This document shows positions 4 to 2,247 of a stretch of DNA of 6,071 bases, piece by piece; the stretch's first letter is position 1; each line of letters starts with the position of its first letter. The notes beneath the pieces are model-generated. The model was not told the origin of the DNA and searched no databases. It saw only the letters and a list, made by a program, of their open reading frames with translations. A program made the position numbers and the translations under genes. The stretch is from Escherichia phage ID32: sequence record NC_007819.1, one strand, 5' to 3'.

Positions 4-42
4 TTGACATACTCTAATCCCTTATGAGACTCTTGCTTCAAC
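4..42 (+). repeat. Degenerate upstream copy of the gene-A promoter region (TTGACAT...CTCTAA...CTTAT...TGCTTCA); left arm of an imperfect direct repeat with 700-738
   Basis: Direct comparison: 4-42 ttgacatactctaatcccttatgagactcttgcttca versus 700-738 ttgacattcctctaacccaccccttatagtgccttca. Perfect TTGACA -35 hexamer at 4-9, but the -10-like TTATGA sits only about 12 nt downstream, so promoter activity is doubtful. Confidence 0.4.
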
Positions 43-66
43 GAAATGACGCAGGAGTCTTTGCTT

Positions 67-435
67 ATGAAACCCGCACATCGCTTAACCCATCCGGTCC
101 TCGGTTCTTGGTTGTTTAAGTGCCCTGTTTATATCCGTTATGAACACCTTCATCATGGTCGTCTTATTAAGGTTCGTGCCGTTCGCGATTTGTCCCCTCG
201 CCAACAGCTTATTGCTAACCCTAAAAATTGCTTTGATGTTGTTATCGCTGAGATTGATGTTACCTATGGCTCCATCACTTGGTTTGATTATGAGCATGAG
301 GAGTATGACGAGTTTGATCCTGATGTTATAAATGGCCTCGTTAACTACATTGATATTCCTCACGTTATCCGTTCTGAGGAAGACCCTTCTGTCGATATTG
401 ATGATATGGATTGGCTTTATGAAATTGCGGAGTAA
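67..435 (+). CDS. Hypothetical protein, 122 aa, basic N-terminal half and strongly acidic C-terminal half (accessory ORF1 in the H-A region)
   Basis: ORF in the six-frame track (46..435). The ATG at 67 is preceded by AGGAG (55-59) at 7-nt spacing; the ATG at 46 is in frame but lacks an SD. TAA stop at 433-435 lies 3 nt before the next ATG. About 21 of the last 65 residues are D/E (e.g. YEHEEYDEFDPD, SEEDPSVDIDDMDW). No homolog recognised from memory. Confidence 0.55.
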   Translation: MKPAHRLTHPVLGSWLFKCPVYIRYEHLHHGRLIKVRAVRDLSPRQQLIANPKNCFDVVIAEIDVTYGSITWFDYEHEEYDEFDPDVINGLVNYIDIPHVIRSEEDPSVDIDDMDWLYEIAE

Positions 436-438
436 ATC

Positions 439-525
439 ATGGAAACTGTTGTCGGAAAATTTATTGCTTTGGCTATTGTTGCTCTTATGCTGTATGGAGT
501 TTCCCGTTTGATTAGTAGGACTTGA
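439..525 (+). CDS. Hypothetical 28-aa hydrophobic peptide, possible single-pass membrane peptide (METVVGKFIALAIVALMLYGVSRLISRT)
   Basis: ATG at 439 preceded by GGAG (429-432) at 6-nt spacing; TGA stop at 523-525 is 1 nt before the next ATG. Uninterrupted hydrophobic core FIALAIVALMLYGV. Below the ORF-track length cutoff, found by manual translation. Confidence 0.35.
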   Translation: METVVGKFIALAIVALMLYGVSRLISRT

Positions 526-526
526 A

Positions 527-703
527 ATGAAGTATTTTAGCCTTGTGGATGAACACTATGCTTATTGCCCTGATTCGCGCATTTTGCACATCACTCGTAG
601 TCGTGTTTCTGACCCTCGGTATGAGCGTCGTTTTCTTACTGATGAGGAGCATTTTGCGCTTTTGGATTGGTTAAAGAGTCGCCCAACATACATTAATTCT
701 TGA
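527..703 (+). CDS. Hypothetical 58-aa protein, Arg-rich (MKYFSLVDEHYAYCPDSRILHITRSRVSDPRYERRFLTDEEHFALLDWLKSRPTYINS)
   Basis: ATG at 527 preceded by AGGA (517-520) at 6-nt spacing; TGA stop at 701-703 lies inside the -35 hexamer of the gene-A promoter. Manual translation; not in the ORF track because under 60 aa. Confidence 0.45.
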   Translation: MKYFSLVDEHYAYCPDSRILHITRSRVSDPRYERRFLTDEEHFALLDWLKSRPTYINS

Positions 704-729
704 CATTCCTCTAACCCACCCCTTATAGT
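700..729 (+). promoter_or_regulatory. Sigma70-type promoter for gene A (P_A): TTGACA (700-705), 18-nt spacer, TATAGT (724-729)
   Basis: Consensus -35 hexamer and near-consensus -10 read directly; position immediately upstream of gene A matches the known P_A location in phiX174-like phages. Confidence 0.6.
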
Positions 730-759
730 GCCTTCAAAGTATTACTTTGAGGGCTTTTT
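730..759 (+). promoter_or_regulatory. Stem-loop plus T5 run in the gene-A leader; stem overlaps the gene-A SD (GAGG 749-752)
   Basis: GCCTTCAAAG (730-739) pairs with CTTTGAGGGC (745-754): 10 bp with one G-U, 5-nt loop, followed by TTTTT (755-759). Lies between the P_A -10 and the A start codon at 763. Confidence 0.5.
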
Positions 760-762
760 CCT

Positions 763-2247
763 ATGGCTACTGAATTATTCTCTGACGTTGTAAAAGCTAC
801 GTGGTCTCACGCTACTGCTAAGCACCCTCACCTTCGCATGGCTGTACAGGTTGATAATCGCAGTCGTCTTCTCTCTGATTTGGTTTACCAGCTGGAAAAA
901 CGCCTCTCTGAAGAGACTCATCTGGATGATGAGACTTATGCCCTTTATGAATCTCAAACCGGTCTTTTGGAAGACCATATGGCGCTGGTTCGGAAGTGTG
1001 CTGCCCAACTTGATAATAGTAACACTATAGACCACCGTACCCCTTTGGATGCCGAATGTGTTTTCCTGTTTGAAATGATTTGCCCAGGTGTTCGTTACGG
1101 TAAAACGTTGAATTCTCTTTGGACTAAGTATGTTGCTCAATGGCCTGAGAAGTTGATTCGTCAAGAGTTAGACATGGTTAAGCCTTTGTCCTTTAAGGAT
1201 GAAGTTGCTAAGTACATGGAGAAGATGCAGGAAAAAACACGCAAAAATCGCATGACTCAAAAAGTAATTAATGAGATGCGTATCGCTCACCAAAAGGGCT
1301 GGTTTTTCGTATTTGATACGTTGACACTTGCTGATGACCGTTTGCAGGCTTTTAATGAAAACCCCAATGCTCTTCGTGATTATTTCAGGACTGTTGGTCG
1401 AGCTGTTCTGCGCGCTGAAGGTCGTTCGGTTAAGGATTCCTACAACGACTGCTATCGCTATCTTTGTGTGCCGGAGTTTGGAGGCCAGCATGGCCGTCTT
1501 CATTGGCACGTTGTGCATATGGTGCGGACTCTTCCTTTGGGAAGTCACGACCCTAATTTCGGTCGCAAGGTTCGTAATTATCGCCAGATTAACTCGTTCC
1601 GTGGAATGTGGCCTTATGGCTTTACGCAACCGATAGCTGTACGCTATCAACATGATGCTTATTCTCGTAAAGGTTGGCTGTGGCCTGTTGACAAAACAGG
1701 AAAAGCAATGCAGAGTAAGCCCTATCAGGCGGTCGCATGGTATGTGACCAAATATGTGGCTAAGCAATCTGACCAGCGTCAGAAAGCTATTACTGAGAGA
1801 CAAAAAAAATGCAAGAATCCACTTATGGCAATCTGTCTGAAAAAGGAATTCAGAGTTCGCAGCAGCCGGAAGCTCGGAATGGAGTTACCGTCGATGGCGC
1901 ATCTCAGCAACAAAGTGCTTCTGGAGCTGAGCCGAATCAGCTTCGATTCCAGCCCTCTGTATCAGATAGTGAAAGAGAACGCCAAAAAGCAATTGACCTT
2001 GAACATCGGCGCGCTGCCTTTGCACGTCATTTTGGATGTGCGCCCGGAAGTGAGAAGTATGTTGAAAAATATCCGTCGTTTGATGAAAAAGACACCCGAG
2101 TTCAATTGGCAGAGTTCTATCGCTTCCATGACGGTCACCTTAAAAAATGGGGATATTTCTGATGAAGCACGTCAATACATTATTGATGCAGGAATTACGC
2201 CTTTTGATTTGCGAGCTAAAGCGACTCAAACTTTCGGCGGTAAGTGA
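763..2247 (+). CDS. A: Replication initiation protein A (HUH rolling-circle endonuclease), 494 aa
   Basis: Long ORF with strong similarity to phiX174 protein A as recalled (e.g. GWFFVFDTLTLADDRLQAFNENPNALRDYF, GRLHWHVVH HUH motif, paired catalytic tyrosines in AWYVTKYVAK, C-terminal FGGK). An in-frame TGA at 748-750 excludes any upstream extension. Confidence 0.95.
   Translation: MATELFSDVVKATWSHATAKHPHLRMAVQVDNRSRLLSDLVYQLEKRLSEETHLDDETYALYESQTGLLEDHMALVRKCAAQLDNSNTIDHRTPLDAECVFLFEMICPGVRYGKTLNSLWTKYVAQWPEKLIRQELDMVKPLSFKDEVAKYMEKMQEKTRKNRMTQKVINEMRIAHQKGWFFVFDTLTLADDRLQAFNENPNALRDYFRTVGRAVLRAEGRSVKDSYNDCYRYLCVPEFGGQHGRLHWHVVHMVRTLPLGSHDPNFGRKVRNYRQINSFRGMWPYGFTQPIAVRYQHDAYSRKGWLWPVDKTGKAMQSKPYQAVAWYVTKYVAKQSDQRQKAITERQKKCKNPLMAICLKKEFRVRSSRKLGMELPSMAHLSNKVLLELSRISFDSSPLYQIVKENAKKQLTLNIGALPLHVILDVRPEVRSMLKNIRRLMKKTPEFNWQSSIASMTVTLKNGDISDEARQYIIDAGITPFDLRAKATQTFGGK
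1006..1035 (+). other. Viral (+) strand rolling-circle origin; predicted protein A nick site between G1012 and A1013
   Basis: CAACTTGATAATAGTAACACTATAGACCAC closely matches the conserved 30-nt phiX174 origin (CAACTTG^ATATTAATAACACTATAGACCAC, from memory) and sits inside gene A as in phiX174. Confidence 0.8.
1216..2247 (+). CDS. A*: A* protein (in-frame internal initiation within gene A); start codon uncertain
   Basis: By analogy with phiX174, where A* begins at an internal Met near MKSRRGFA. In-frame ATGs in the homologous region are at 1216, 1225, 1252 and 1276; none has a convincing SD. Confidence 0.3.
   Translation: MEKMQEKTRKNRMTQKVINEMRIAHQKGWFFVFDTLTLADDRLQAFNENPNALRDYFRTVGRAVLRAEGRSVKDSYNDCYRYLCVPEFGGQHGRLHWHVVHMVRTLPLGSHDPNFGRKVRNYRQINSFRGMWPYGFTQPIAVRYQHDAYSRKGWLWPVDKTGKAMQSKPYQAVAWYVTKYVAKQSDQRQKAITERQKKCKNPLMAICLKKEFRVRSSRKLGMELPSMAHLSNKVLLELSRISFDSSPLYQIVKENAKKQLTLNIGALPLHVILDVRPEVRSMLKNIRRLMKKTPEFNWQSSIASMTVTLKNGDISDEARQYIIDAGITPFDLRAKATQTFGGK
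1809..2162 (+). CDS. B: Internal scaffolding protein B, 117 aa, overprinted within gene A
   Basis: ORF in the track; C-terminal AEFYRFHD...GYF matches phiX174 B; a different frame from A, as in phiX174. Confidence 0.85.
   Translation: MQESTYGNLSEKGIQSSQQPEARNGVTVDGASQQQSASGAEPNQLRFQPSVSDSERERQKAIDLEHRRAAFARHFGCAPGSEKYVEKYPSFDEKDTRVQLAEFYRFHDGHLKKWGYF

Follow-up and report, generated by a model that had tools for sequence, protein, structure and literature searches.

Does the 28-codon hydrophobic open reading frame (ORF) wedged between two larger ORFs at positions 439-525 of the Escherichia phage ID32 genome encode a membrane peptide, or is it an incidental product of a T-rich strand and of the sequences that overlap it? 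The window, that is, the whole 6071-nt stretch of DNA that was analyzed and to which all coordinates refer, is the complete genome of an α3-like microvirus (Alphatrevirus, Bullavirinae) linearized directly 3' of gene H. Comparison of this locus with its relatives suggests that the 28-codon ORF (hereafter micro-ORF) is probably a genuine, translated small gene of the α3-like microviruses that encodes a single-pass membrane peptide and is the middle cistron of an accessory cassette. The case for this reading, and for the alternatives in which the selected entity is a different frame, both frames, or the nucleic acid itself, is developed below.

Organization of the region between genes H and A

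All long ORFs in the window are on the plus strand, in the gene order A, B, K, C, D(E), J, F, G, H; the 494-aa product matches the Pfam family Phage_GPA and the 325-aa product matches Microvir_H. Bases 1-762 correspond to the H/A intergenic region that is left blank in most records, and show 78-91% identity to 25 Alphatrevirus records, including ID21, phiK, NC29, WA13, α3 and St-1. In the Rokyta-style records, the match to this region begins at base 1 of the record, directly 3' of gene H. The region is packed with three consecutive plus-strand ORFs, namely ORF1 (67-435, 122 aa), the micro-ORF (439-525, 28 aa) and ORF3 (527-703, 58 aa). A further plus-strand ORF of 30 aa (419-511; MKLRSKSWKLLSENLLLWLLLLLCCMEFPV) is located in the +1 frame, where it begins within the 3' end of ORF1 and extends over most of the micro-ORF.

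A hairpin 3' of gene H (26-61, plus strand; -18.9 kcal/mol, z = -5.8) is preceded by TTGTTGACAT and holds the Shine-Dalgarno (SD) sequence of ORF1 in its 3' arm. Ahead of gene A, there is a promoter-like site of the form TTGACA-18-TATAGT (700-729, plus strand), followed by a terminator-like hairpin (730-754, plus strand; -15.3 kcal/mol, z = -4.9). Within positions 1-900, promoter-like and terminator-like sites are found only at 700-754, where they mark the downstream edge of the cassette. Segments 1-66 and 697-762 are similar units that frame the cassette, with the region of the 26-61 hairpin aligning to the copy before gene A. Each unit consists of TT(G/C)TTGACAT, a stable hairpin, and TTxCxTATG, which is the start of ORF1 or gene A, respectively; the 3' arm of each hairpin carries the SD of the next gene, and a proper -10 element at the correct spacing is present only in the second unit (697-762). 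Judging by this arrangement of motifs, the H/A junction seems to have been duplicated when the cassette was inserted.

Both neighbors of the micro-ORF are clearly coding by dN/dS (NG86), which is 0.19 for ORF1 and 0.08 for ORF3, and variation in ORF1 is dominated by third codon positions. The AF2 model of the ORF1 product (pLDDT 90.5) has no meaningful neighbor in the PDB (Z <= 3.8; none at Z>=5), and the model of the ORF3 product (pLDDT 80.6), which consists of four strands and a helix, has no informative PDB neighbor (Z <= 5.2). The ORF list places the start of ORF1 at ATG46 (129 aa), inside the post-H hairpin; the annotation of phage Lilleven and the gene callers on related contigs start ORF1 at the equivalent of ATG67 (122 aa), with a GGAG motif 8 nt upstream. 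In some relatives, ORF1 has a 32-aa N-terminal extension, for a total of 154 aa.

Sequence features of the micro-ORF

The micro-ORF runs on the plus strand from ATG439 to TGA525 and encodes the peptide METVVGKFIALAIVALMLYGVSRLISRT. The original prediction, made from the letters of the window, was that a 28-aa hydrophobic ORF with its own SD lies between ORF1 and ORF3 and abuts both of them, and this description holds in all three respects. The SD is a GGAG motif (429-432, plus strand) that is located inside the last codons of ORF1 (GCG GAG), 6 nt before the ATG. The predicted duplex with the anti-SD, at -6.1 kcal/mol, is the same as for genes A and F and ranks in the top ~13% of the ATG codons of the genome. 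The ORF1 stop (TAA, 433-435) is 3 nt upstream of the micro-ORF ATG and the two ORFs share the reading frame (TAA ATC ATG); at the other end, ATG527 of ORF3 is 1 nt past the micro-ORF stop. An SD-like AGGA of ORF3 (517-520, plus strand) is embedded in the tail codons of the micro-ORF, with a duplex energy of -3.9 kcal/mol in the window; most relatives have GGAGG in this place. The stop thus abuts or overlaps the next start with neither a promoter nor a terminator in between, which is the arrangement of a coupled operon.

The hydrophobic core was expected to span 15-19 residues and to be flanked by charges. The flanks are as expected (E2/K7 on one side, R23/R27 in a basic tail on the other), whereas the core is slightly smaller, with 14 uninterrupted hydrophobic residues (F8-V21), or 18 (V4-V21) when K7 is counted in. 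The Kyte-Doolittle maxima are 2.14 over 19 residues and 2.59 over 15 residues. By these hydropathy values and charge counts, the peptide has a hydrophobic stretch of bilayer length and flanks that fit the positive-inside rule.

Under a chance estimate in which ORFs of 20-70 aa that combine an ATG, an SD and a hydrophobic product were counted in random genomes of the same composition, 0.08 such ORFs are expected per genome, compared to 2 in the real one. The only other ORF in the genome that fits this description is found at 1490-1636 (plus strand, 48 aa), out of frame inside gene A. Only 8 of the 243 point mutations in the micro-ORF frame create a stop codon, and none of these is a transition. 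Because the frame is intrinsically robust to stops and these counts come from one sequence only, its openness here proves little, and the weight rests on the comparative evidence. The propensity of the T-rich strand to yield hydrophobic ORFs in several frames also weighs against the micro-ORF reading.

Conservation of the micro-ORF among alphatreviruses

The comparative set was assembled from 14 GenBank relatives, IMG/VR, metagenomes and Logan/ENA assemblies, and consists of 49 loci with 31 distinct sequences. Loss of the frame in relatives had been named beforehand as one of the findings that would refute the original prediction; both the ATG and the frame of the micro-ORF are intact in all 49 loci. 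Together, these loci encode 23 peptide variants of 28-30 aa with a nearly fixed core, METV[IV]GK[FL]IAL[AV][IV]VALMLYG[IV]. The tails vary (SRLIRRFP, SRLISRTLK, SRLIDRTLR, YVTINRILK and others), but each of the 23 variants has a net charge of +2 or more. Other alphatrevirus copies show 86-100% peptide identity over residues 1-25, and agree with the window copy in the SD and in being coupled to ORF3. Combined with the hydrophobic core, this conservation of the frame supports the view that the micro-ORF resembles a genuine small gene whose product spans the membrane once.

The translation signals are maintained along with the peptide. The SD is GGAG in 43 of the 49 loci, GGAA in 3, GGGG in 2 and GGAAGA in locus L041. 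In 48 of the 49 loci, the micro-ORF stop overlaps the GTG or ATG start of ORF3 (GTGA/ATGA); the window is the sole exception. Compared to the closest tail class, the window has a 1-nt deletion at 520-527 (ACTTTGAAATG to ACTTGAAATG), as a result of which the peptide is two residues shorter and, at 28 aa, is the shortest known version. The start codon, the SD and the stop-start overlap persist through the indels at the 3' end. Two features of the alignment weigh against the micro-ORF reading: the SD is weaker in a few relatives (6 of the 49 loci), and several lineages carry the radical replacement R23C in the basic tail. The most divergent context is that of L041, a mosaic (recombinant) locus in which ORF1 is only 39% identical; this locus is not a deep test of conservation because the micro-ORF and ORF3 are found there at the ordinary within-group distance.

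The existence of the micro-ORF is already on record, so that it is an under-annotated feature and no discovery. As originally surmised, it has been overlooked by annotation, with most database records lacking it. Gene finders call it on several metagenome contigs, and the Lilleven record (MK629527) is the only one that annotates three hypothetical proteins in this region, including a 29-aa protein at the orthologous place; this protein (QBZ71503.1) is the micro-ORF ortholog, in the same position between the same neighbors. The α3 record of 1985 (M25640) contains bare ribosome-binding-site features, one of them directly before the orthologous ATG. According to a 2010 review (PMC2935103), which refers to Rokyta et al. 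2006 (J Bacteriol 188:1134), these phages have five additional conserved frames. This number would be consistent with ORF1, the micro-ORF, the +1-frame ORF, ORF3 and another +1 ORF that is located inside ORF3.

The latter ORF (549-674, plus strand; 41 aa, MNTMLIALIRAFCTSLVVVFLTLGMSVVFLLMRSILRFWIG) is hydrophobic and open in 32 of 32 aligned relatives. Transitions that are nonsynonymous in ORF3 are seen at 9 of 38 sites when they are silent in the 549-674 frame, compared to 2 of 40 when they are not, and this ORF is a candidate for one of the five frames.

Searches for homologs and known families

A tblastn search with the micro-ORF peptide found it only in the 25 alphatrevirus records, with no match in plasmids. 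A homology search in which tandem copies of the peptide served as the query matched only a mis-called fusion with ORF3. Searches based on the neighboring genes, which covered IMG/VR, metagenomes, a set of 5.8 billion proteins, a set of 1.84 billion representatives and bacterial genomes, retrieved only ~6-kb alphatrevirus contigs. To the extent of these sequence searches, the cassette is confined to alphatrevirus genomes of ~6 kb.

Family searches with the micro-ORF peptide and with the ORF1 and ORF3 products gave nothing meaningful in Pfam, PHROGs, NCBIfam or PADLOC; the best scores of the micro-ORF, with DUF7266 (E = 0.11) and phrog_4546 (E = 0.028), are below the meaningful range. The suggested kinship to families of small toxins or membrane modulators is therefore not borne out by a match in any of these four collections. 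No similarity between the micro-ORF and the microvirus K or E families was detected with the profile HMMs of Pfam, PHROG and NCBIfam. At the RNA level, the micro-ORF stretch has no relevant match in Rfam.

Substitution patterns and competing explanations

Substitutions in the micro-ORF are distributed in a coding pattern, and its synonymous sites are unusually conserved. Parsimony steps in codons 1-24 are distributed over the three codon positions as 37/3/20, with position 2 depleted at p = 1e-7, and the replacements are conservative (I/V, F/L, A/V, S/A). The density over all sites, 0.83 steps/nt, is low compared to ORF3 (1.22) and ORF1 (1.61), and the difference is greater at third positions, where ORF3 has 2.46 and ORF1 3.09 steps/site, compared to 0.83 in the micro-ORF. 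As a point against the micro-ORF reading, synonymous transitions in its core are polymorphic at only 9 of 24 sites (0.38), whereas the fraction for ORF3 and single-coding gene A is about 0.63; in the overall estimates of this fraction, ORF1 is at 0.86-0.90, ORF3 at 0.57-0.62 and single-coding gene A at 0.52-0.76, so that the silent-site diversity of ORF1 is well above that of ORF3 and gene A. The zone of low synonymous variation (~395-500) begins inside ORF1, crosses the boundary between ORF1 and the micro-ORF, and coincides with the +1-frame ORF. T-rich third positions were rejected as its cause given that T->C silent sites vary at 5 of 15 positions here versus 65 of 74 in ORF1. RNA structure was rejected as well: the alignment of the micro-ORF folds at -12 kcal/mol with 0 compensatory pairs, the MFE z is +0.70, and there is no Rfam family.

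The +1-frame ORF is hydrophobic, and is open with ATG419 in all 49 loci (21 variants), including the mosaic L041, where the surrounding ORF1 is only ~60% identical. The alternative upstream ATG401 is not universal, and the stop at 509-511 varies among TGA, TAA and TAG. A +1 frameshift from ORF1 into this frame was considered and rejected because the candidate slippery sequence CTT-T is not conserved. Hydrophobicity and conservation therefore do not single out the micro-ORF frame, a point that the original prediction missed, because the overlapping +1-frame ORF, also hydrophobic, is at least as conserved. The main test of the two frames was a logistic model of which point variants exist, with a free regional intercept. 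Earlier likelihood-ratio tests, which took the neutral baseline from the ORF1 and ORF3 flanks, gave p of about 1e-6; these values are inflated because control windows reach 1e-4 in such tests and ORF1 is unusually diverse.

Given these patterns, it might be argued that the +1-frame ORF (ATG419 to TGA511), with its basic N-terminus and Leu-rich helix, is the selected gene and the micro-ORF frame is a stop-poor, T-rich by-product that happens to lie behind an SD. Besides its openness in all loci, this frame has a dN/dS of 0.23 versus 0.39 for the micro-ORF, and the zone of low variation begins near 395, inside ORF1, where the +1-frame ORF starts. Among the 13 variants that are present in at least two sequences, 9 are silent in the +1 frame (the remainder being K->R, S->L, F->L and V->A) versus 6 in the micro-ORF frame (the remainder being I/V, F/L, A/V, S/A and R/C). 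Synonymy in the +1 frame also improves the model when the micro-ORF frame is already included (p = 0.057 for any variant, 0.0005 for variants in at least two sequences). The converse is, however, true as well, with p = 0.019 and 0.0085, respectively, for the micro-ORF frame given the +1 frame. Furthermore, the silent transitions of the +1 frame itself are polymorphic at just 12 of 35 sites, about half the backbone level, and sites that are silent in the +1 frame but nonsynonymous in the micro-ORF are depleted (8 of 25), in particular the T<->C sites at the first positions of Leu codons (TTR/CTR), which hit position 2 of the micro-ORF codons and vary in 1 of 8 cases. The +1-frame ORF lacks a good SD (-3.9 kcal/mol, spacing 3), even if this signal is no weaker than those of the known overlapping genes B and K, for which weak SDs are usual; it contains the radical singletons L->P, L->S, E->G and C->F; and its W/C/L-rich composition is an automatic result of frameshifting an NTN-rich gene. 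Taken together, these observations make it unlikely that the +1 frame is the only gene. An extension of the preferred reading, which does not compete with it, is that ~70 nt (440-508) encode two overlapping mini membrane peptides that are both under purifying selection. In 32 sequences, the transitions seen among those possible are 3 of 3 when silent in both frames, 8 of 21 when silent in the micro-ORF only, 8 of 25 when silent in the +1 frame only, and 1 of 18 when silent in neither. Each frame improves the model given the other, and either single-frame model leaves its own silent sites ~2-fold depleted relative to ORF3 and gene A. The Bullavirinae are the classic home of overlapping genes, and the five extra conserved frames mentioned in the 2010 review exceed the three non-overlapping ones. 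The two peptides are predicted to have opposite orientations, N-out/C-in for the micro-ORF product and with the basic N-terminus inside for the +1 product. Against this stand the small size of the tested stretch (67 nt, 26 variants), the fact that the sequences are phylogenetically related and recombining, the miscalibration of the flank-baseline tests, and the modest p values of about 0.0005-0.06 under the free intercept; besides, a single coding frame combined with some other constraint at the nucleotide level would look alike. The chances that the +1-frame ORF is functional as well are roughly even, and dual coding is a tentative proposal, possible but on balance somewhat doubtful.

The low density of substitutions, the extension of the quiet zone across the ORF1/micro-ORF boundary and the location of the ORF3 SD in the micro-ORF tail could also be accounted for by an untranslated nucleic-acid element, e.g., an initiation or standby region of ORF3, or a signal in RNA or single-stranded DNA. 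Such an element does not readily explain the strong three-base periodicity, nor that the substitutions present are exactly those that are conservative or silent in the two frames, nor that the start, the SD and the stop-start overlap survive the 3'-end indels; with no conserved or unusually stable RNA structure detected in the alignment, this explanation appears quite improbable. Still harder to sustain is the notion that the micro-ORF is a read-through extension that provides some of the ORF1 protein with a C-terminal membrane anchor. It is compatible with the in-frame arrangement of ORF1 and the micro-ORF in all 49 loci, the two being separated by 3 nt except in L041, which has no spacer (0 nt). 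The ORF1 stop is, however, always TAA, which is the least leaky stop codon in E. coli, the micro-ORF keeps its own ATG and SD in all loci, and the in-frame relation would be forced also if the +1-frame ORF has to run unbroken across the junction. Read-through is, accordingly, extremely unlikely. The reading of the micro-ORF as a translated gene in its own right thus remains the preferred one, with the 30-aa ORF in the +1 frame probably encoded by this stretch as well, or at least imposing a constraint on it.

Comparison with known small membrane proteins

Type I toxins and small membrane modulators (TisB, Ibs, ShoB, DinQ; MgtS, PmrR, AcrZ) are peptides of 19-50 aa with one hydrophobic helix and a short charged tail, and peptides of this size are routinely missed by length cut-offs. 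The micro-ORF product shares the length class, the single (predicted) hydrophobic helix and the short charged tail. It differs from these peptides in that it has no match among the toxin and small membrane protein families of Pfam, NCBIfam and PADLOC and no relative on plasmids, and ORF1 has no bacterial relative; in addition, an antisense-RNA partner, as in type I toxin systems, would be implausible for the micro-ORF if only one strand is transcribed, as in phiX174-type phages. Proteins pVII and pIX of filamentous phages (32-33 aa) are likewise tiny hydrophobic products of a single-stranded DNA coliphage that are encoded in abutting or overlapping cistrons. These proteins, however, belong to a virion that is assembled at the membrane, in contrast to the cytoplasmic assembly of microvirus capsids, and there is no sequence similarity between them and the micro-ORF peptide.

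Within the microviruses, the lysis protein E of phiX174 has an N-terminal transmembrane helix and blocks MraY. The micro-ORF product resembles it in being microvirus-encoded, with a single predicted N-terminal transmembrane helix, among overlapping frames, but is much shorter (28 aa vs about 91 aa) and has no match to the Pfam family Microvir_lysis; an E-like frame is already present inside gene D of the window genome. Protein K of the phiX174 group is another small, hydrophobic accessory protein of the Bullavirinae that is encoded in a region of overlapping frames (~56 aa and non-essential; for its role, see table 1 of PMC2935103). The micro-ORF shows no sequence similarity to K, is half as long and is sited after H rather than at A/C, and the window genome carries its own K at 2147-2323. 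The closest counterparts of the micro-ORF remain its orthologs in the other alphatreviruses, from which the window copy differs in the short tail and in the stop located 1 nt before the ORF3 ATG instead of overlapping it.

Proposed role and implications

If the micro-ORF is a gene, ORF1, the micro-ORF and ORF3 would comprise a tightly packed, translationally chained cassette that fills the H/A region. Synthesis of the peptide would depend on long phage transcripts that continue past the hairpin 3' of gene H. The product could span the inner membrane of E. coli with a single helix (approximately residues 4-21), leaving its short N-terminus on the outer side and its basic tail on the cytoplasmic side. 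Our best guess, extrapolated from these features, is that the micro-ORF product functions as an accessory single-pass inner-membrane peptide of N-out/C-in topology. Such a small membrane factor might be a partner or anchor for the products of ORF1 and ORF3, and might modulate infection at steps that involve the membrane, for example entry exclusion, the site of replication or the timing of lysis. Since the cassette is absent from phiX174 and G4, the peptide is probably not needed for the core cycle of microviruses.

The phages α3, St-1, phiK and WA13 are textbook models to which 11 genes are usually ascribed. Most records label about 12% of the genome as intergenic, yet there are at least three clearly conserved genes in this region. 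The cassette is missing from the RefSeq annotation of the type species, and the RefSeq annotations of the genus should be updated. If the two-frame reading is true, the locus would be a compact natural case of overprinting between two micro-proteins. More generally, the cassette, with a possible 3-5 genes and no relative outside the genus in the searches described above, is the main trait that separates the alphatreviruses from phiX174 and G4. Its role, which possibly lies in exclusion, host takeover or the tuning of lysis, would account for the presence of 700 additional bases in genomes under extreme size pressure.
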